Source: a virus
Taxonomy: Duplodnaviria; Heunggongvirae; Uroviricota; Caudoviricetes
DNA length: 12,094 nt
IMG/VR virus record: IMGVR_UViG_2802429253_000011
Reading direction: 5' to 3' (one strand)
The notes beneath the pieces are model-generated. The model ran no database searches. It had not been told where the DNA came from and saw nothing but the letters and a program-made list of their open reading frames with translations. The position numbers and the translations under genes were made by a program. Below are positions 3,267-12,094 of this stretch, piece after piece; within the stretch, counting starts at the first letter, position 1, and each line of letters begins with the position of its first letter.

Positions 3267-5180
3267 TCATGCTCCATTCGATTTCAGCAATCCACGATAA
3301 TCGAGGGCCGCGACACCTGCATCTATGCGCACCTTCCAGGCGACACCATCAACAGTAAAGCCCACCTGCTCCTCAAGATATGGCGTATCCATACCATCAA
3401 GATAAGCGACTTCTATTGTGTCCATCCCCTTAGCTGCGGCTACATACCATTCCTTGCTATTGGCCTTATCAAGACGTGGCTCAACAATTACTTCTGCCAT
3501 ATCTTTCACCACGTTAATGATGCCGGGGTTCTGATTGATAGTGCCCTCATCACCAACCGGAAAGACTGATGACGATGACAGAATGGCGCGACGCGCGGCA
3601 GATTCCAGCGCGGCAGGGACCAGAACAAAAGCAGGGGTAATATTCAGTGAGTCGCCGTTAGCATCCTCCTGGAGGCGCATCAGCTTACGGGCTTCATCAA
3701 GCCCCACCATGTCCATATCCTTCGCAATAAGATTTTTATGATCGGCATGGAATAACGCTTTACCATCCGTAAACTTGCCGTTGCTGGTTAACAGGAGATA
3801 AACCAGATTGCCAACTGTTCTGGCGGCTGCGCGTCCCATCGCCATGGGGATTGTAGTTAACTGGGTCAGGTCATCGTTGATAATGGCCTGACGGGTAACG
3901 GAAAAAATATTCCCGTACGTGGCCAGCGCAATAGGTACACCTTTATCGCTGGTGGTGATGTATTTATATTCCGCACCTTCCGGTACTTTATCCAGCTTTG
4001 AAAAACCATTCAGACCAACGCGCTTTGCTTCATGAAAGTTTGAAAGCGAACCGGTACGCGTCCATTTCTGGAACGTTTCGCCGCTGTCCTGCCAGCCTTT
4101 CAGTACAGATTTTTCAGCCCCACCAGCCAGAATATGAGAAAAATCACTGCTGCTGTGTGTAAAAGCCGCATTAACAACCTGCGAGCGATTAATAAAACCA
4201 CTCACAGTGATACCACGATCAACCAGTGATGCCTGGGCCATTTCAAAAAGGCTCATCATCGCGTAAGGGTTGCCTCGTTCAGGGCGTTCATACCCAAGAC
4301 GGGAATAAAGCCCCTGACGAATTGCATCACCTGTTATGTTTCCGTTTCCGGCATAGATATGAGGCGGGGTATTTTTATTGGATGGCGTGGACTCGCGCCC
4401 CAGCTCGTTCAACAGCTTTTCACGGGCCATTTCCGGTGTACATGATGCATCTTCCAGACACGCCATTTTGATCCCGTCGTAACGACTGCCGAACAGGCTA
4501 AACACTTCACTTATTCCATTGATGCGTTTCTGTTCATTACCAGCAATATTTGCCGCTCCCTGTGGCGGTGTAATCATTCCTTTAATGGTTTCCGGCATAT
4601 GTAAAAAATCTCCTGTACGTTTCGATTCAATTCGCGCCATTGCTCTGACGGATGGCAACAATTCATCAGCAAAACCGTGCTTAAGGCATTCTTTCCCATC
4701 CATCCAGGTTTCATCCTCCAGCATGGCGGTAATTTCCTGTGCTGATTTGCCCGTTTTTCTGGCATAAGCAGGGATTAACACGGTTTCCACCTTATCCAGC
4801 AAATCAGCATAATCACGCATATCGCCAGCATTTCCGCCAGAGATCCCCCACGGTTTATGGATCATCATCATGGCGTTCTCCGGCATCACTACACGATCGC
4901 CAGCCATTGCGACCACCGAAGCCATTGAAGCCGCAACACCATCGATATAAACCGTAATGTCTGCCGGATGATTCCGTAGCAGGTTATAGATGGCGATGCC
5001 TTCAAACACATCACCACCTGGTGAATGGATCCTCAGATTGATATGTGAAACATCGCCAAGGGCTTTCAGGTCTTCCGCGAACTGCTTTGCAGTAACACCG
5101 AAGCCGCCAATCTCCTCATAGATAGATATATCCGCCGCTCCGCGAACATCCGCCGCCTTAATGGTGTACCAGCGATTCAT
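3267..5180 (-). CDS. Fusion of prohead protease (ClpP/S14-like) and HK97-fold major capsid protein, 637 aa
   Basis: N-terminus carries ClpP-like motifs (INLRIHSPGGDVFEGIAIYNLL, DGVAASMASVVAMAGD, MMMIHKPWG); the C-terminal ~400 aa has the composition and length of an HK97-family capsid protein. Start ATG 5178-5180 overlaps the upstream stop (TAATG). Confidence 0.8.
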   Translation of the reverse strand: MNRWYTIKAADVRGAADISIYEEIGGFGVTAKQFAEDLKALGDVSHINLRIHSPGGDVFEGIAIYNLLRNHPADITVYIDGVAASMASVVAMAGDRVVMPENAMMMIHKPWGISGGNAGDMRDYADLLDKVETVLIPAYARKTGKSAQEITAMLEDETWMDGKECLKHGFADELLPSVRAMARIESKRTGDFLHMPETIKGMITPPQGAANIAGNEQKRINGISEVFSLFGSRYDGIKMACLEDASCTPEMAREKLLNELGRESTPSNKNTPPHIYAGNGNITGDAIRQGLYSRLGYERPERGNPYAMMSLFEMAQASLVDRGITVSGFINRSQVVNAAFTHSSSDFSHILAGGAEKSVLKGWQDSGETFQKWTRTGSLSNFHEAKRVGLNGFSKLDKVPEGAEYKYITTSDKGVPIALATYGNIFSVTRQAIINDDLTQLTTIPMAMGRAAARTVGNLVYLLLTSNGKFTDGKALFHADHKNLIAKDMDMVGLDEARKLMRLQEDANGDSLNITPAFVLVPAALESAARRAILSSSSVFPVGDEGTINQNPGIINVVKDMAEVIVEPRLDKANSKEWYVAAAKGMDTIEVAYLDGMDTPYLEEQVGFTVDGVAWKVRIDAGVAALDYRGLLKSNGA

Positions 5181-5698: not shown

Positions 5699-5771
5699 AT
5701 GAAAATGCAAAAACCAGCCTTTTTCCGCGCCGCTCCCGCCCCGTGGCAGGTCACTACACCGGGAGGACCCA
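5699..5771. repeat. Copy B of the 73-bp direct repeat (partner at 2349-2421)
   Basis: Differs from copy A only at 5715, 5751, 5755 and 5756. Abuts the terminator at 5772-5795. Confidence 0.8.
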
Positions 5772-5795
5772 TAAAAAAGCCGGATTGCTCCGGCT
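5772..5795 (-). terminator. Intrinsic terminator ending the primase/origin transcription unit
   Basis: Stem AGCCGGA (5778-5784) / TCCGGCT (5789-5795), loop TTGC; on the minus strand it is followed by six U (complement of A5773-A5778). Confidence 0.6.
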
Positions 5796-5931
5796 TCTGT
5801 CACTCGTTGCTTAAAACGGTATGTTATCCCCGTACGGATCATCATTCCCCGCCTGTTGTTTTGGTGTGCTTCGCTGTCATAGGCTTTATCTCACAGCAGT
5901 AAATTAAAATTTTTGCGTTTTAACCCTTCAC

Positions 5932-6154
5932 CTGTTCACCTTTTGATATTTTCTCTTTTAATTCATAATGTTAAGGGGTGAACAGTTTCACAAAAACTAT
6001 TCACCAACTGTTCACCACTGTTCACCCTTGAAGCTCAATAAACAATCAAAAAGGTGAACAGTGAATAGTTTGGTGAACAGTTCATAAATAACTGTTCACC
6101 CTATAATATACTGATATAAAAGATATTTATGACAGGGTGAACAGTGGTGAACAG
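5932..6154. repeat. Iteron array, candidate replication origin (P4 ori/crr-like)
   Basis: Eleven copies of CTGTTCACC or its complement GGTGAACAG (two of them variants, CTATTCACC and GTGAATAG) at 5932, 5977, 5997, 6008, 6018, 6053, 6061, 6072, 6092, 6136 and 6146, in both orientations, interleaved with AT-rich tracts (5941-5974, 6101-6134). Ends 20 bp from the primase stop. TGTTCACC is the type I iteron bound by P4 alpha protein. Confidence 0.75.
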
Positions 6155-6173
6155 TTATTCCATAAGTTTAATT

Positions 6174-7985
6174 TTAGCTATCGTCATTAGTGACCGATAC
6201 ACATGATGGCATCCAGTCTTCTGATTCCTCCGTCAGTGTCACGTTTGAACGCAAACCGTGCTTCGTTTTCCGTTTCATATACTCCCTGCCATATTCCGCC
6301 ATTGCCCCCGGCATATCTTTACCGAAGCGCGTCAGTGTTACAGGTTTACCAAACCCATGTGCCCTCATATAAGCCAGATAGGCATGATAGAGATACCTGC
6401 GTGGGCTGAATGGCACAATTTCAGCATTACCCACTAACAGGCCATCACACATTACCGACGCCATGAGATAGCCGCAGAAGTCCACCAGCGAATCCCCCTC
6501 TCGCTTTATCGCCAGTGCTTCTTCAGATTTCTGCTGCTCATATAACAGGCGTCTGGCTTCGTCCTGGTCAGCAAACCGTGTAAGCAGATGGCGAATCACT
6601 ACCGCCAGCTCACCTTCTATTTTTTCCGCCAGCATTGGATCGCGTTCGTTCTCCGGTACAACTTCCGAAAAATTGAATATCACCCGACGACGTGAGATCC
6701 CCCCGCTGCGGTCACTGAATGACATGGCGTTATTGTTAACCGCCAGCACTACTGCCGGAATACGCGTTGAGTAGGGGGCTTTGTGTTTCGGGTCAATTGC
6801 CACCTTGTCACCGCCTGTAATAGCCTTAATCCCTGCCCCATCACCAGCGTAGCGGGTCATATCCGGCATGATAATCAGCGAAAAGCCAACCACTAACGCG
6901 CGTTCCCTTGCATCTTCCAGCGCCTTCATGCTTGCCGATACTGTGTTGGCCTTACCCGCCAGCATGGTGCAAATCTCCGCCATCACGCTTTTACCACTTC
7001 CCCCTGGACCTGTTACCTCAATGAATAACTGCCAGTCGTACCGGTTCGCCAGCACCATGAATAATGCAGCCAGTACGCGATCCGCCTTGCGGTCATTCTC
7101 AGCCACCGAACGGCGTAACCACTTCCAGAAATTCGGCGCATGTGTTGCCAGCGTTTCCCCCTCTGCTGGTGGGCTGAAAGGTAATTCACTGGCAATTAAC
7201 AACCAGTCGTTTTTGTTATGCTCCCGAAAATTACCTGTTCTGGTATCAAATACCCCGTTACTGAATCCAATCAGGTTACGGGCTGTATTCCCCATAACAG
7301 GCAAACTTAACTTCATGGTATCGACCGCCGATTTAATGGCGTTCTGCGAATAGCTGATCTCCGCATCAATGAAAATCTGTGCCATAGCTCGCTGTAATTC
7401 TTTATCCTGTACTGGCTCCCATACAACGCCGTTGTAATGGTGAACAGTATCAGAGTCGGCATGAATCGCCAGTTCACCGCCATAATGTGCCAGGAGAACT
7501 TCGCCGCGTTGACTTGCTCCCATCTGGTTAAGCGCCAGTGATGAAGCGTTATCGTCTTTTACCCGCTCTTTTTTCTTTACAGGCAGTTCAACTACCTTTT
7601 TCTTTTCCGCCTGCTCTGCCCGTTCACGTTCCAGATATTCGCGCCAGTTCTCCCGTTTCTGGCTGTGCATTCCTTCAGGATAATAATCAGCATCCCTGAC
7701 ACCGGCCGCTGCCAGTTTCTGCCCGATGGTATTAACAAGCCCCGGACGCAATAACCCCGCCTGATAGAGACGCACACGATAGCGTCCGTCCGGTACGATT
7801 TGCAGGTTGTCCAGTTCGGCAAGTTGTTGCTCTCCAAGCCAGACAGGAGGCACGTTATCGCCAGCCAGTCGCCCGTCCTGTTCCTGCCACTGCTTCGCAT
7901 GTGCCCACGCATCACTACCCGCAAAAATGATGACTTCCGTCATTTTGTCACGTGGCTGGTGTTTTAAATTTGGCGCTTTTTTCAT
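6174..7985 (-). CDS. P4 alpha-type primase/helicase (N-terminal primase region, SF3 helicase with Walker A GPGGSGKS)
   Basis: Long ORF with VTGPGGSGKS, followed by residues typical of the phage/plasmid primase P4-family C-terminal domain. Start assigned to ATG 7983-7985, which overlaps the upstream stop (ATGA); track start is a GTG at 8000. Iterons lie directly downstream. Confidence 0.8.
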   Translation of the reverse strand: MKKAPNLKHQPRDKMTEVIIFAGSDAWAHAKQWQEQDGRLAGDNVPPVWLGEQQLAELDNLQIVPDGRYRVRLYQAGLLRPGLVNTIGQKLAAAGVRDADYYPEGMHSQKRENWREYLERERAEQAEKKKVVELPVKKKERVKDDNASSLALNQMGASQRGEVLLAHYGGELAIHADSDTVHHYNGVVWEPVQDKELQRAMAQIFIDAEISYSQNAIKSAVDTMKLSLPVMGNTARNLIGFSNGVFDTRTGNFREHNKNDWLLIASELPFSPPAEGETLATHAPNFWKWLRRSVAENDRKADRVLAALFMVLANRYDWQLFIEVTGPGGSGKSVMAEICTMLAGKANTVSASMKALEDARERALVVGFSLIIMPDMTRYAGDGAGIKAITGGDKVAIDPKHKAPYSTRIPAVVLAVNNNAMSFSDRSGGISRRRVIFNFSEVVPENERDPMLAEKIEGELAVVIRHLLTRFADQDEARRLLYEQQKSEEALAIKREGDSLVDFCGYLMASVMCDGLLVGNAEIVPFSPRRYLYHAYLAYMRAHGFGKPVTLTRFGKDMPGAMAEYGREYMKRKTKHGLRSNVTLTEESEDWMPSCVSVTNDDS

Positions 7986-8281
7986 TTCTGCTCTCTCCAC
8001 GCGGCAATCATGTTTTTCAGTTCCTGTAGTTTTTTATCCACATTCACACGTGACACATGGTTATTTCTGGAAAGCGGGATTTCCCGCCTGAATCTGCTAA
8101 TAAAGATCTCCACGTTCAGCGAACTATGAAATGAATAGCCATCACGAATAAAATACACACGGTCAAACATTATCGATTTTACTGTTACTCTGTTGCCGTT
8201 CTTATCCCGATAAATAGCGCCGGGGATAATTTTGGGATGTGCATAACCGCTGGCAGTCAAGCCAGATAAATACGTTCTCAT
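7982..8281 (-). CDS. Hypothetical 99-aa protein, coupled to the primase
   Basis: ATG 8279-8281; stop overlaps the primase start. No family recognised. Confidence 0.5.
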   Translation of the reverse strand: MRTYLSGLTASGYAHPKIIPGAIYRDKNGNRVTVKSIMFDRVYFIRDGYSFHSSLNVEIFISRFRREIPLSRNNHVSRVNVDKKLQELKNMIAAWREQK

Positions 8282-8287
8282 GATTAT

Positions 8288-8608
8288 TTATCCCCGATTT
8301 GAATCAGTATTCGCTTTCTTTATGGCATTTAATGCATCTGTGGCATTTTCAATGGTGCACCGTAACGAAATATCAAAATGTCCAAGCATTGCCAGTAACA
8401 AACCGATATTACCCATATCAATGCGCATGGCCTTTTCGTCATAGTCCTCATTTTCTGACGCATGCCACATCAGGCTACCAATTGACGCAACGGCCATTGA
8501 TATATTGTCAGTCGCCACATCCGCAGCGGAATAAACCTTTTTAGCAATATCATGCTCACAGTTAAAATGCGGATTAATCAGGTACTGGTAATTTGACATA
8601 TCAGGCAT
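8288..8608 (-). CDS. Hypothetical 106-aa protein
   Basis: ATG 8606-8608 overlaps the upstream stop (ATGCCTGA); RBS GGGGG. Acidic protein, no family recognised. Confidence 0.5.
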   Translation of the reverse strand: MPDMSNYQYLINPHFNCEHDIAKKVYSAADVATDNISMAVASIGSLMWHASENEDYDEKAMRIDMGNIGLLLAMLGHFDISLRCTIENATDALNAIKKANTDSNRG

Positions 8609-8804
8609 GGCACACCCCCTGACGAATACGGGCGGCGAATACCATCACGCAGCCAGCCGGGGATTGCTGGCGTGCTTCCTGTTCGCTGGTGGCCACGATG
8701 GTAATCACACGCGGTTTTGCGGCGCTCAGGGCGATAAAACGCCAGGCGAATTTATTCAGGTTGTGCGAATCCCGCCCTTGCGGGTGTATGGTATGATTTC
8801 TCAT
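8601..8804 (-). CDS. Small Icd-like protein (P4-family host cell division inhibitor-like), 67 aa
   Basis: MRNHTIHPQGRDSHNLNKFAWRFIALSAAKPRVITIVATSEQEARQQSPAGCVMVFAARIRQGVCHA; ATG 8802-8804 with GAGG 6 nt upstream. The track merges it into a 334-aa ORF whose upstream part is antisense to real plus-strand genes. Family call is from memory of Icd-like annotations. Confidence 0.5.
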   Translation of the reverse strand: MRNHTIHPQGRDSHNLNKFAWRFIALSAAKPRVITIVATSEQEARQQSPAGCVMVFAARIRQGVCHA

Positions 8805-8842
8805 AGCTACCTCGATACTCTCGTTATCGTTGGTGGTTAGAA

Positions 8843-8887
8843 GCCCTGCGAGTGGTAACGACACTTGCGGGGCTTTGTTTTTTGTTG
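8843..8887 (+). terminator. Plus-strand intrinsic terminator or attenuator in the divergent control region
   Basis: 12-bp stem (8843-8854 / 8862-8873) with two G-U wobble pairs that only pair in plus-strand RNA, 7-nt loop, then UUUGUUUUUUGUUG. Confidence 0.5.
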
Positions 8888-8899
8888 CACTTACTGTTA

Positions 8900-8950
8900 A
8901 TGTACGTACGTAATATTGATGATAATAGGAGTTACGTACGTACATGTCAA
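8900..8950 (-). promoter_or_regulatory. Leftward promoter (TTGACA-17-TATTAT) overlapped by a pair of 14-bp perfect inverted repeats (operator)
   Basis: On the minus strand, -35 TTGACA is at 8950-8945 and -10 TATTAT at 8927-8922 with a 17-bp spacer. ATGTACGTACGTAA (8900-8913) and TTACGTACGTACAT (8932-8945) are exact reverse complements and flank the RBS and start codon of the RHH gene. Confidence 0.6.
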
Positions 8951-9135
8951 CATTAAAGCGGGATAAATCACCACGCGGCGAGGGATGGTCGCCGACATTC
9001 CAGATACGAATTAGCAAAGAACTACGCCAGCAAGTAAACGAGGCAGCAACCGCCGATGGCCTAACCCTCGGCAATTGGTTTAAAGAATTAGCTCGTGCCG
9101 AACTAAAGCGACGCGGCATTGAACCTAAAGGCTGA
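8944..9135 (+). CDS. Ribbon-helix-helix (Arc/CopG-like) DNA-binding protein, 63 aa
   Basis: FQIRISKELRQQVNEAATADGLTLGNWFKELARAEL has the strand-helix-helix pattern of RHH regulators. AGGAG at 8927-8931; start codon sits inside the right operator arm. Confidence 0.55.
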   Translation: MSTLKRDKSPRGEGWSPTFQIRISKELRQQVNEAATADGLTLGNWFKELARAELKRRGIEPKG

Positions 9136-9138
9136 TGT

Positions 9139-9264
9139 ATGACTGAAAAGCAGACCGATAACAAACTTTCTCTACCAGAGAATAAACCAGCAGGCTTCTT
9201 ACCAAGAAAAATCCTTGATGAGATCAAACGCCGCCAGCGGCGCAAGGCCAAAGAGCAGGAGTAA
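9139..9264 (+). CDS. Possible 41-aa basic peptide, or 5' part of an interrupted gene
   Basis: ATG 4 nt after the RHH stop; ends at TAA 9262-9264; same frame as the next ORF. Confidence 0.2.
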   Translation: MTEKQTDNKLSLPENKPAGFLPRKILDEIKRRQRRKAKEQE

Positions 9265-9321
9265 CCATCACCAGCGCCGTGGTGCGGTGAACTGTGGCGC
9301 ACAGGGTTACAGGTATCTACG

Positions 9322-9501
9322 ATGACTGACAAATCATTAAAGAAATTATCCTCATCCAAGAAAAAACAACGCAAAAATGCGGTAAACGAACATGAACCGG
9401 AGAGATTCGCACCATGTGCGTTTATCCTTGAGAAGTACCTTAAAGAGTATTCTAGGAAAATACGCTCATTGCAGGCATGGCAGCGAATCGAGCCAGACTG
9501 A
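9322..9501 (+). CDS. Possible 59-aa Lys-rich protein, or 3' part of an interrupted gene
   Basis: ATG 9322-9324 to TGA 9499-9501; in frame with 9139-9264 and no other stops between them; followed by a terminator. Confidence 0.2.
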   Translation: MTDKSLKKLSSSKKKQRKNAVNEHEPERFAPCAFILEKYLKEYSRKIRSLQAWQRIEPD

Positions 9502-9566
9502 TAGCATTGCCCACCAGCCAACAACCTGGTATTCTGGATATGCTCAAGTTTAGTGTTATGCCACTG

Positions 9567-9594
9567 GCGGCCCTCTGCGGTCGCCTTTGTTTTA
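9567..9594 (+). terminator. Intrinsic terminator of the rightward small operon
   Basis: Stem GGCGGCC (9567-9573) / GGTCGCC (9579-9585) with one G-U pair, 5-nt loop, then UUUGUUUUAUG. Confidence 0.5.
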
Positions 9595-9611
9595 TGTGCC
9601 ATCACTCCCCC

Positions 9612-9821
9612 TTACACCGTCTGCGTTCTGCGAGTGGATGCAAGATAAGCATCGAGATCAGTGCGCATATACAGCACTTTGCGCCCCAGCTTATGGAAAG
9701 GGATTTTTACCTTGCCAGTACAGGCCCAGTTCGCCAGCGTTTGATTGTTAACGCCAAGGTAGGCAGCAGCTTCAGCACGTGTAAGGCGGTCAGTTGATAA
9801 ATCAGATTTCTTTAAATTCAT
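9612..9821 (-). CDS. AlpA/Xis-family helix-turn-helix DNA-binding protein, about 69 aa
   Basis: LTRAEAAAYLGVNNQTLANWACTGKVKIPFHKLGRKVLYMRTDLDAYL fits the small AlpA/excisionase-type HTH family. ATG 9819-9821 chosen; an alternative GTG at 9830 gives 72 aa. Confidence 0.7.
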   Translation of the reverse strand: MNLKKSDLSTDRLTRAEAAAYLGVNNQTLANWACTGKVKIPFHKLGRKVLYMRTDLDAYLASTRRTQTV

Positions 9822-9882
9822 ATCTATCACCGTGTACTTCTAAGTAACAACGGTGATAAATATCAATCAATGGGTATTTTGT

Positions 9883-9968: not shown

Positions 9969-10689
9969 GGGGGTGAACAAGTTCAAACGAAGAATATTTA
10001 TCAGGTCTTGGTGGTTGTGCTCCTGATTCTTTAATCCATTTATCCAGAGTGTTTTTACTTACTTTCCCATGATAGTAAACAGAAAGCTCGTTCAATAAAC
10101 CTGTTTTACTGGCTTTAGGGTACTTTTCCCATGTTAGTTTAATTACGTGCATAACTTCATTGTAATAATGATTTCTTGGTTTGCGCGCTTTTTCTTTCTG
10201 TGATAAGGATAAAGCATCTTTTATTTTTTTATCTTTTTCATGGTTCGATATAATTTCTTCAAAAAAGTCATTAAGCAATAACTCAACACCAACCCTAGTA
10301 AGTTTGTCTGCGTGATTACGCATTCCGACATGGTACAATGCAACTGCTGAATTTAAAGTATCGACAACCTGACAAGATAGTTTACTATCAAATATTAAAA
10401 AACCACATGAATCCATTCTTATAGCTAATTCAATAGGATATTGCTCGATTTCTCTTAATTCTAAACCATAACACAAAAGAAATTCTCTTGTTGGATACTT
10501 TGATTTATAAAAATAATCTCTTATATCATCAATCAAGCGTTTTATAGCCTCTATGGTGGAGTTTTTCGGGGATAAAGATACAGGAACGTTTAAAACTGAA
10601 GAGTCTCGCCCACCAGTAATTAAATCATTCATAACCGAATAAATAATATATTGTTTGACCGATATATTGTTATCACCCATATATGTCAT
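9964..10689 (-). CDS. Hypothetical protein (238-241 aa), AT-rich, translationally coupled to the integrase
   Basis: ORF noticeably more AT-rich than its neighbours by eye. Candidate ATG at 10678-10680 overlaps the integrase stop (ATGGGTGA); track start is at 10689. No motif recognised (no Walker A, no transmembrane segment). Confidence 0.55.
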   Translation of the reverse strand: MTYMGDNNISVKQYIIYSVMNDLITGGRDSSVLNVPVSLSPKNSTIEAIKRLIDDIRDYFYKSKYPTREFLLCYGLELREIEQYPIELAIRMDSCGFLIFDSKLSCQVVDTLNSAVALYHVGMRNHADKLTRVGVELLLNDFFEEIISNHEKDKKIKDALSLSQKEKARKPRNHYYNEVMHVIKLTWEKYPKASKTGLLNELSVYYHGKVSKNTLDKWIKESGAQPPRPDKYSSFELVHPQ

Positions 10690-12094
10690 TCTTTTCTTGT
10701 ACTATAGCAAATAGTAAACGACGTTTTTCATCATCACTCATGCCCTCCAGTGCGGAAAGTAATTGCGCATCGATAGATTTTTTACTCTCCACCAGCCCGG
10801 CATGTTCCAGAATTGCCCGTTCTATCCGTGATGCTGGCTCCAGCAGTTCATCAGCACCGAAATGTAAATACCCCTGCGTTACGTCGGCACTTCGCATAGT
10901 GCGGTGATTCATCAGGCGCTTGAGGATGTAATTACCCACGCCCACCAGCTCAGCAACCGTTCCGAACGTCCGGCGTGCGTCGTGCCACTTAAACGGGACA
11001 GGGAAGAGCATTTCATCGTTCGCCTCAGGAATGGTAGCCGCGCTTATCCGGTCTATGATGTGCCGTGTCTCCTGAATCACTCCCTTCACGCCAGGAAACA
11101 CCAGCACATCATCAGCAGCTTTGTTTTTTAGCCTGCGAAGAAACATTTTCCGCAACGTATCAGTGATCGGCAGTTCAAGCGGATCCCCGTTTTTCGTGGT
11201 GTCTATCCAGAAAAAGCGACCGCCCATATTCACGCGATCCCACGTAAGGCCAAAAACTTCTGATTTCCTCAGTCCGGTAAACAGTGCCATTTCCACGGCA
11301 TCACATACCGTAACAGCTATATCATCCCTTTCCTGTTCGCCCTGGTCGCGCACAGCAGCTACAGCAGCAAACCAGCGGGGAAAATCATGCAGGCGGATAC
11401 GTTCCGTTTTTCTTACCGTTCCGTGCCACTGGCGCTTGGTGCTCAGTACCAGAGTCGGCGGATCCGGTAAAAGAGTATTACCCGCATCATCACGGTAATG
11501 ATCATGCGCAAACCGACACACAGCACGTAGCGCACGCGCCCATAAATCGGCCTGTGCCTTGCTTCCTGTACCAACCCCAGCCCGTAACGTGGTTTTATCA
11601 GCACCGAACCATACAGCCCCATCAGTGATGGCCTTATGCCGTTGTTCCACCCGTTCGCGGGAAATACTGGCGAGGGTATGGGCCATCCAGTCACCGGAAT
11701 AATTCTGTAATATGCTGCGGTACTGTTTTTCTGTGGAGGGTTTCAGGCGGTGGCCACGATTTTTTACGTAGGCGTCAATCGCCTCACTCAGCGTTATCAT
11801 GGCCTTGTTGTTAGTGCGCTTTGCTATGTTCGGATTTATCCCCGTTGTGGCGACTTCGCCAAGGAGTTCCATAGCTTTAGCCCTGGCATTATCCACGCTC
11901 AGATCAGGAAAACGCCCCAGCGTTGCACGAATAAATTTTCCGTTACGCTTACGGGAAATGCAGAAACTTTTCACACCAGACGAACCTACACGGACACGCA
12001 GCCCGTTAACCTCCGTATCACCATATTCGACCTGTCCATGTTCCGGCGTTGGCAGTTCTGCAATTTTTACTTTAGAGAATCTGAATAATTTCAC
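10673..12094 (-). CDS. Tyrosine recombinase/integrase (P4-type with N-terminal arm-binding DUF4102-like domain), 5' end at window edge
   Basis: N-terminus GLRVRVGSSGVKSFCISRKRNGKFIRATLGRFPDLSVDNARAKAMELL is typical of P4-family integrase arm domains; C-terminal HDARRT and downstream Tyr region fit the catalytic domain. The only in-window start is a GTG at 12092-12094, so the true start may lie beyond the window. Confidence 0.8.
   Translation of the reverse strand: MKLFRFSKVKIAELPTPEHGQVEYGDTEVNGLRVRVGSSGVKSFCISRKRNGKFIRATLGRFPDLSVDNARAKAMELLGEVATTGINPNIAKRTNNKAMITLSEAIDAYVKNRGHRLKPSTEKQYRSILQNYSGDWMAHTLASISRERVEQRHKAITDGAVWFGADKTTLRAGVGTGSKAQADLWARALRAVCRFAHDHYRDDAGNTLLPDPPTLVLSTKRQWHGTVRKTERIRLHDFPRWFAAVAAVRDQGEQERDDIAVTVCDAVEMALFTGLRKSEVFGLTWDRVNMGGRFFWIDTTKNGDPLELPITDTLRKMFLRRLKNKAADDVLVFPGVKGVIQETRHIIDRISAATIPEANDEMLFPVPFKWHDARRTFGTVAELVGVGNYILKRLMNHRTMRSADVTQGYLHFGADELLEPASRIERAILEHAGLVESKKSIDAQLLSALEGMSDDEKRRLLFAIVQEKNDIYG

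Follow-up and report, generated by a model that had tools for sequence, protein, structure and literature searches.

The DNA analyzed here is a stretch of 12,094 nucleotides (nt) from the Caudoviricetes virus record IMGVR_UViG_2802429253_000011, hereafter called the window. Between its minus-strand gene for an Icd-like protein (icd) and a plus-strand gene for a ribbon-helix-helix (RHH) protein lies a short conserved segment that very probably specifies a cis-antisense RNA. An original prediction had placed at this location a plus-strand RNA of about 80 nt, running opposite the ribosome-binding site (RBS) and start codon of icd. That a structured plus-strand RNA exists here can now be stated with considerable confidence; the fuller interpretation, in which an RNA of about 79 nt is made from a promoter of its own and represses icd as well as the operon headed by it, appears to us the probable one.

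When read on the plus strand, the segment folds into two consecutive hairpins followed by a T-rich run (Table 1). The predicted transcription start at 8803-8805 and 3' end at about 8880-8883 define an expected transcript of approximately 8804-8882, i.e., about 79 nt, in good agreement with the length first proposed. Hairpin 1, which goes beyond what had been described previously, contains two G-U pairs (8806/8837 and 8808/8835) and carries CCUC at 8810-8813, the complement of the icd Shine-Dalgarno (SD) sequence. Hairpin 2 has the makeup of an intrinsic terminator in the window, namely a G+C-rich stem, a short loop and a U-tract on one strand: the terminator scan returned a 15-pair stem (8840-8876) with a 7-nt loop, immediately followed by GTTTTTTGTT, and reported it on the plus strand only. 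The first three T residues of the 8874-8883 run are paired with the base of the stem, and the tail of the window, TTTGTTTTTT, ranks among the best T-rich tails of its relatives. Three pairs of the stem are G-U on the plus strand (8840/8876, 8847/8869 and 8850/8866) and A-C mismatches on the minus strand, on which the scan found no T-run after the stem. Thus, the earlier claims that the wobble pairs and the U-run are confined to the plus strand, and that the terminator would serve this strand alone, both held. The predicted folding energy of the RNA at 8803-8890 was -40.1 kcal/mol, compared to -20.8 +/- 2.8 kcal/mol for shuffled sequences (z -6.9), and none of the 200 shuffles equaled it. No AUG was seen in the RNA by eye; a 77-amino-acid plus-strand open reading frame (ORF) at 8607-8840, considered as a coding candidate, was treated as an antisense by-product of icd.

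The segment is widespread, and its parts occur in a fixed order. The block from 8600 to about 8885 was matched in 1338 of 5426 complete Escherichia coli genomes, mostly at 86-94% identity and in up to five copies per genome; multi-copy genomes contribute roughly 320 additional sites. The matches mostly stop at 8875-8889, just past the T-rich tail of hairpin 2, and beyond this tail unrelated operator/promoter modules are found across elements. A DNA search with 8600-8900 gave no match in 50,697 phage records, and hence no record among these carries the block. To sample more distant relatives, 249 Icd-like loci were gathered from species-level genomes, viral contigs and metagenomes; the species-level genome scan, with a single protein query, supplied 8 loci, and the diversity came from alignment-based scans of the viral and metagenome contigs. 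The named genera among them are Escherichia, Cedecea, Citrobacter, Rahnella, Rosenbergiella, Enterobacter, Superficieibacter and Intestinirhabdus. In all but five of the 249 loci, a -10-like hexamer lying within the opening codons of icd is followed by the start codon, then by hairpins 1 and 2, and finally by a T-rich tail; four of the five exceptions are cut at a contig end, and the fifth is a sequence variant in which the order is still kept. The loci fall into two subfamilies, designated E-type, which includes the window and has a hairpin 1 with outer and inner stems, and D-type, in which hairpin 1 is a single stem of 8-10 bp with a 7-nt loop bearing the anti-SD motif CCUC or CUCC. Hairpin 2 exists in at least 36 sequence forms, all of which pair, with a mean folding free energy of about -22 kcal/mol. 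A covariance model, built from the alignment of homologues, matched 87 of 87 diverse loci from several Enterobacterales genera and metagenomes with E-values of 1e-10 to 5e-40; all matches are antisense to icd, and each begins on the complement of the start codon by construction of the model. Complementarity to the icd RBS and start codon is present in the window and in all 87 loci. In the model-based alignment of these loci, pairing reached 97.9% with 12 compensatory pairs, helices 1 and 2 being 98-100% paired.

Covariation was examined in an alignment of 45 distinct E-type sequences, in which RNAalifold recovered both helices with a total of 20 pairs, 10 of them showing compensatory changes. 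Standard pairs made up 98.1% of the cells, compared to 87.6% in shuffles; none of 500 shuffles matched the observed value on any of five measures of pairing and covariation, and slid registers were only 29-58% paired. The 10 pairs of hairpin 1 were 99.8% paired and included compensatory A-U/U-A changes, and in hairpin 2 such changes were found in 8 of 10 pairs. The alignment is also informative as to the strand. Its pair cells contained 143 G-U and no A-C combinations on the plus strand, and the same columns were 82.2% paired when read on the minus strand. Among 103 distinct homologues, the mean folding energy was -34.8 for the plus strand versus -23.1 for the minus strand; 102 of the 103 fold better as the plus strand, and G-U accounted for 17-19% of the pairs in the minimum-free-energy structures of the plus strand versus 2-5% in those of the minus strand. 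Considering the wobble counts and the near-uniform advantage of the plus strand in stability, the structure belongs to a plus-strand RNA, and the placement of such an RNA opposite the icd RBS and start codon, as originally proposed, is supported by the covariation and by the model matches.

These data bear directly on two other explanations. In one, the structure acts in the minus-strand leader of the icd mRNA, where it would serve to stabilize the mRNA or to regulate its translation, without any antisense RNA being produced. The complement of the structure does lie in the icd 5' untranslated region (UTR), the minus-strand fold over a longer span (8790-8916) also beats shuffles (-29.6 kcal/mol, z -3.4), and the SD is partly paired in that fold. 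Nonetheless, apart from the wobble pairs, the lower pairing and the lesser stability of the minus strand just described, the minus strand of the window scored only 9.7 bits with the covariance model, which recognized hairpin 2 alone there, as opposed to 85.7 bits for the plus strand, and a T-run after the stem is present on the plus strand alone; we therefore regard this explanation as improbable. The other, which we consider highly improbable, places the function in the DNA itself, for example as a site of single-strand initiation, a palindrome bound by a protein, or just a recombination joint. While the position at the edge between conserved and variable blocks and the presence of a primase gene in the island would suit such a role, frequent G-U wobble pairing combined with compensatory changes is characteristic of RNA, the structure has a promoter-like -10 on one side and a U-tail on the other, in the correct order, and the array that is most likely the replication origin lies elsewhere (see below).

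Transcription of the antisense RNA would start from the extended -10 inside the beginning of icd, which was found at the position given by the original prediction. Its hexamer is conserved at three positions: T1, A2 and T6 are invariant in 117 of 117 distinct promoter regions, in which the hexamer takes the forms TATGAT, TATAAT, TATTAT, TACGAT, TAAGAT, TATGCT, TAGACT and TACACT. The three positions are retained although the icd residues beneath them vary. A2 is paired to the third base of an icd codon, and this codon reads CAT, TAT, AAT, TCT or TGT, but never the synonymous NNC. E-type loci have the canonical TGn extension, and D-type loci have TGGG ahead of the hexamer; the distance between hexamer and start codon differs between the subfamilies (4 nt versus 10 nt), yet in each of them the predicted transcription start is no more than a few bases away from the start codon. 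The pattern fits a real promoter, albeit short of proof.

Several observations weigh against an antisense RNA with defined ends and its own promoter. First of all, no recognizable -35 element accompanies the extended -10, and the motif TGNTANNNT occurs 24 times in the window when 24.1 occurrences are expected, i.e., at chance level, for which reason the -10 motif by itself was dropped as evidence of a promoter; the unit as a whole does exceed chance, being conserved with covariation at all related loci that were examined. Since the sequences are related, the rule that the third base is always T rests on few independent events, and in the E. coli subfamily (E-type) the -10 is inconspicuous because the entire 5' part of icd is at least 90% conserved. 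The U-tract is interrupted in many relatives (4-6 T per 10 nt past the stem), and therefore termination may be partial in these; on average, the 10 nt past the stem contain 5.3 T in E-type and 4.8 T in D-type loci, and the 10 nt before it contain 1.1 and 1.7 A, respectively. Finally, the promoter, the transcription start and the 3' end are themselves predictions from sequence. Two other sites in this area were noted. A second plus-strand promoter-like site occurs at 8541-8568, but the gene in which it lies is nearly invariant among close relatives, and its conservation is thus uninformative either way. A G+C-rich palindrome, CCCGC-CCTT-GCGGG, occupies 8771-8784 within icd codons 7-11, where the -35 of the antisense promoter would be expected; it is at least 90% conserved in E-type loci and absent from D-type loci, and may represent a hairpin of the mRNA or a site of protein binding.

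The gene opposite the RNA belongs to the Icd-like family, its product scoring 66.2 bits (E 1.9e-18) against NF033153, for which the cut-off is 25. The identical protein is named 'host cell division inhibitor Icd-like' in RefSeq, and PHROGs labels the family 'transcriptional repressor'. It is the first gene of an operon that continues with orf106, the DUF4222 gene and the gene of a D5-type primase-helicase, and its stop codon overlaps the start of orf106 (8608). Transcription from the predicted promoter of this operon (P_icd) would start at about 8916, leaving a 5' UTR of about 112 nt that holds the full complement of the antisense RNA. At the equivalent position, TTGAC(A/G) was also found in the unrelated upstream modules of relatives. 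It follows from this geometry that the RNA, as predicted, would be perfectly complementary to the last 80 nt or so of the operon leader, including the SD.

The mechanism that we propose is as follows. RNA polymerase would move rightward from the extended -10, starting at or beside the icd start codon; the transcript would form the two stem-loops, and the second of these, together with the U-rich tail, would terminate it. Pairing with the leader, probably initiated by loop-loop contacts, would block ribosome binding to icd and may create a substrate for RNase III, and it would probably trigger cleavage or Rho-dependent polarity. An extension of the block to the replication genes is expected, given the overlap of orf106 with the icd stop codon and the susceptibility of untranslated leader RNA to termination by Rho. 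In a resting island, the RNA would eliminate residual expression that leaks past the protein repressor at P_icd. Upon derepression of the strong P_icd, transcripts from this promoter would come to exceed the antisense RNA in number (titration), and the polymerases that it launches would run over the convergent antisense promoter (interference), such that the operon would be switched on sharply. Tight control of icd is a reasonable expectation, since Icd of phage P1 blocks growth and the formation of the Z ring (PMC11897509), expression of icd in P1 is likewise subject to an antisense RNA, C4 (PMC8198154), and the likely cell-death effector of an ECOR61 prophage is a primase-linked Icd-like protein (bioRxiv 10.1101/2023.04.06.535777).

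An alternative is that the RNA is chiefly the antitoxin of a type I toxin-antitoxin or abortive-infection system, directed at a toxic Icd-like protein and serving island maintenance or phage defense instead of replication control. The geometry is that of SymR/SymE, in which the promoter of a 77-nt RNA lies in the 5' coding region of the toxin gene (PMC1891008), and the growth inhibition by P1 Icd would agree with it. However, icd heads the primase operon and overlaps its second gene, so that a block would reach the replication genes as well; moreover, toxicity is known for P1 Icd, to which the protein studied here is linked by family membership, and the PHROGs label of the family is, as noted, 'transcriptional repressor'. 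We thus view this alternative as rather unlikely, and retain repression of the whole operon as the preferred reading.

The 5' boundary of icd deserves a separate comment. Its frame remains open upstream for 334 codons (8601-9605, minus strand), crossing the RNA gene and then running opposite the RHH gene. Many Icd-like proteins in databases are 97-117 amino acids long, and the PHROG profile has 26 additional N-terminal positions. These longer entries probably result from start codons called too far upstream, so that part of the non-coding leader is included, and the RNA gene would account for the doubtful N-terminal extensions of many of them. A length variation was also observed at two loci, one in Escherichia ruysiae and one in a viral contig (L002 and L167, respectively), in which the Icd-like gene has an insertion of about 60 residues after the N-terminal MAGTQHTQTHPKF; the protein of L002 is 121 amino acids long, and both loci retain the antisense RNA module despite the insertion.

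On the other side of the RNA lies the RHH module. The RHH protein gave weak matches to HicB (E 0.0038), YlcI_YnfO_N (E 4e-4) and the Arc-like repressor phrog_228 (E 1.8e-4), and is presumed to be a repressor that binds the two TACGTACGTA palindromes. The spacer of P_icd contains one palindrome, the presumed RHH promoter (P_RHH) is overlain by the other, and both are kept in 8 distinct relatives; in all 8 distinct relatives with the RHH module, the copy at 8903-8912 is accompanied by TGnTA(A/T)(T/C)GT. The presumed P_RHH on the plus strand and P_icd on the minus strand converge, with predicted starts about 6 nt apart (the RHH mRNA being expected to begin at about 8910), and an Arc-like RHH repressor would act on both. 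The layout resembles the face-to-face switch of phages P2 and 186, here with an Arc-like RHH protein. It was originally considered equally possible that the hairpin is an attenuator in front of the RHH gene, meaning that transcription from 8792-8797 would run into the RHH operon and hairpin 2 would be a regulated terminator. The hairpin is on the same strand as the RHH gene and 57 nt upstream of its start, and the imperfect U-tracts of many relatives make read-through plausible. This parity did not survive the comparison of relatives, because the modules that follow the RNA block in different elements are many and unrelated, with homology ending just past the T-rich tail, and because a separate extended -10, conserved within the RHH module, is present beyond the hairpin. 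In addition, no conserved alternative (antiterminator) pairing was found, and hairpin 1 is conserved too, exactly on the icd RBS. With the presumed P_RHH lying past the terminator, an attenuator becomes unnecessary, and we consider it quite unlikely.

The cis-antisense RNA was next compared with known systems. Rfam 15 was searched at the gathering score and at E <= 1 on the whole window, and at E <= 10 on 8600-9150; only the transfer RNA (tRNA) and chance-level matches were returned, and the families that should include SymR, RNA-OUT, sar, Sok and CopA were not among them, nor were C4 (RF01695) and IsrK. A minus-strand match to the R1162-like family RF00043 was rejected at 16.7 bits (E 2.7) against a gathering score of 55. 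Identity with the C4/P4 CI RNA and IsrK (seqA) was likewise dismissed, as their models were unmatched and the structure here is on the opposite strand to icd. Literature searches by sequence words and by topic found no paper describing the RNA, and the papers on phage-inducible chromosomal islands (PICIs) that name Icd-like genes mention no RNA. The RNA is therefore apparently undescribed as a family, although its kind, the cis-antisense regulator, is well known.

Of this kind, RNA-OUT of IS10 and sar of phage P22 are short, terminator-ended stem-loop RNAs that start in or beside the target gene, run outward over its RBS and act by pairing. Both face a convergent target promoter, and the P22 immI region (arc-ant) has an Arc-type RHH repressor, as does the satellite locus. 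RNA-OUT pairs with the first 35 nt of its target and sar with an intercistronic region, whereas the satellite RNA has two hairpins, would pair with about 80 nt of leader and matches no Rfam family of that sort. The copy-number RNAs of plasmids, such as CopA of R1, RNA I of ColE1 and the R1162 RNA, have two or more stem-loops, a constitutive promoter, a replication-gene leader as target, and specificity loops; the element that hosts the RNA described here is, however, an integrated satellite and not a plasmid. In promoter placement and RNA length, the RNA resembles SymR, which represses a harmful protein from a promoter within the coding sequence of its target (PMC1891008). There are differences nonetheless: sequence and model searches (Rfam, E <= 10) gave no match to SymR, the target here heads a satellite replication operon, and the protein partner is a presumed repressor with palindromic operators in place of LexA. 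C4 of P1 and P7 is an antisense RNA that masks an RBS and so controls icd-type and downstream genes of mobile elements (PMC8198154), and P4-like satellites are reported to use C4/IsrK-like RNAs for immunity (PMC3632133). The C4/CI RNAs are processed out of the transcript that also carries their targets and rely on short loops for pairing, in contrast to the satellite RNA, which would come from the opposite strand and be fully complementary.

A further property of the RNA is the variability of the 7-nt loop of hairpin 1. In 60 distinct E. coli-type sequences, nucleotide diversity was 0.364 in this loop, 0.063 at the 4-fold degenerate sites of icd and 0.0 in the flanking 5-bp stems, making the loop about six times as diverse as the synonymous sites of icd. 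The 20 variants of loop 1 and 36 variants of hairpin 2 were found in 62 combinations, and one hairpin 2 with its downstream module was seen with six different loops. Considering this diversity, the free reassortment with hairpin 2 and with downstream repressor modules, and the presence of up to five copies of the block per genome, the loops may tentatively be viewed as specificity determinants that sort related satellites into immunity or incompatibility groups defined by the RNA; relaxed constraint combined with recombination is the alternative. The specificity loops of plasmid antisense RNAs (CopA and RNA I) exhibit the same pattern of diversity and offer a model for the satellite loops. If specificity is indeed their role, diversifying selection on the kissing loops would let co-resident satellites evade each other's antisense RNA, and matching loops would let one satellite silence the replication operon of a newcomer. 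One genome, IMG 2778261179, has two copies of the block with different loops (L028 and L114), a single case being too few for a test of specificity.

To our knowledge, the silencing of the replication module in Gram-negative PICI and P4-like satellites is poorly understood beyond AlpA and the CI RNA of P4. If the proposed repression is correct, the RNA would constitute a second, post-transcriptional lock on the Icd-like/primase operon, in an element that roughly one in four complete E. coli genomes contain and that also occurs in other Enterobacterales. The substitution A8793G, which takes the key A from the -10 and turns the icd His codon CAT into the synonymous CAC, should remove the RNA and leave all proteins unaltered. 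The RNA is also a well-supported candidate for a family absent from Rfam.

Table 1. Features of the window and their coordinates (+ and -, plus and minus strands)
Feature	Position	Strand	Details
Whole antisense RNA unit	8802-8889	+	cmsearch 85.7 bits, E 2.5e-35; sole strong match in window
Candidate antisense promoter, extended -10 TGGTATGAT (TGgTATGAT)	8789-8797	+	hexamer 8792-8797; inside icd codons 3-5
Hairpin 1	8804-8839	+	outer stem 8804-8811/8832-8839; inner stem 8813-8817/8825-8829; loop 8818-8824
Loop of hairpin 1	8818-8824	+	7 nt; CTCTCGT in window
Hairpin 2 and T-run	8840-8883	+	stem 8840-8854/8862-8876; loop 8855-8861; T-rich run 8874-8883
Icd-like gene, 67 amino acids	8601-8804	-	NCBIfam NF033153; RefSeq on identical locus
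icd start codon ATG	8804-8802	-	
icd SD GAGG	8813-8810	-	
P_icd, sigma-70	8922-8950	-	TTGACA 8950-8945, 17 nt, TATTAT 8927-8922; promoter scan, 11/12 matches
Presumed RHH promoter, extended -10 TGtTAATGT	8895-8903	+	past the antisense terminator
TACGTACGTA palindromes, presumed operators	8903-8912 and 8933-8942		30 bp apart; 2 matches vs 0.16 expected
RHH (Arc/HicB/YlcI-like) protein	8944-9135	+	weak matches only
Two small ORFs		+	pointing away from icd, like the RHH gene
AlpA-type helix-turn-helix protein	9612-9830	-	
Tyrosine integrase	10673-12094	-	
DUF4222 protein	7982-8281	-	Pfam
D5-type primase-helicase	6174-8000	-	Pfam D5_N/Pox_D5
ClpP-capsid fusion	3267-5180	-	
Lambda tail-I-like protein and small-terminase-like protein		-	island genes

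The window as a whole represents a phage-satellite island of about 10 kb that adjoins a tRNA gene with a CAT anticodon (809-884), called tRNA-Met by ARAGORN; a gene of the UDG superfamily (Mug-like) lies beside it, both within 177-884. The chromosome of E. coli A36 (NZ_CP028739) contains 8600-9150 as an identical copy, for which the RefSeq annotation shows no feature between icd and the RHH gene. The regulatory block, comprising the genes for the integrase, AlpA and RHH proteins, the RNA, icd, orf106 and the DUF4222 gene, is common to the window and A36 (L001, 2474-8386). Downstream of it, the window has the D5-type primase and the ClpP-capsid fusion, whereas A36 has a DUF927 primase and separate capsid and decoration genes; since the two share the block up to the DUF4222 gene and then differ, an exchange point near this gene is suggested. 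In A36, nfeF, nfeR and aer follow the integrase end (L001, 12775-16077). Going by the gene order of E. coli K-12, we take the tRNA locus to be ileX (tRNA-Ile2), at which the island probably integrated.

Two repeats in the island were also noted. An 80-nt direct repeat, 91% identical between its copies at 2349-2428 and 5699-5778, precedes both the terminase-small-like gene and the capsid operon in the minus-strand direction. It folds no better than shuffles; it is G+C-rich and flanked by CUUUUU/AAAAAG arms, followed by a U-run on the minus strand, and may serve the two units in common as a terminator, an antiterminator or part of a late promoter. Directly downstream of the primase-helicase gene, at 5930-6156, ten copies of GGTGAACAGTT are found in both orientations, with one mismatch allowed, compared to 0.17 expected in the whole window; this array is most likely the iteron-type replication origin of the satellite.

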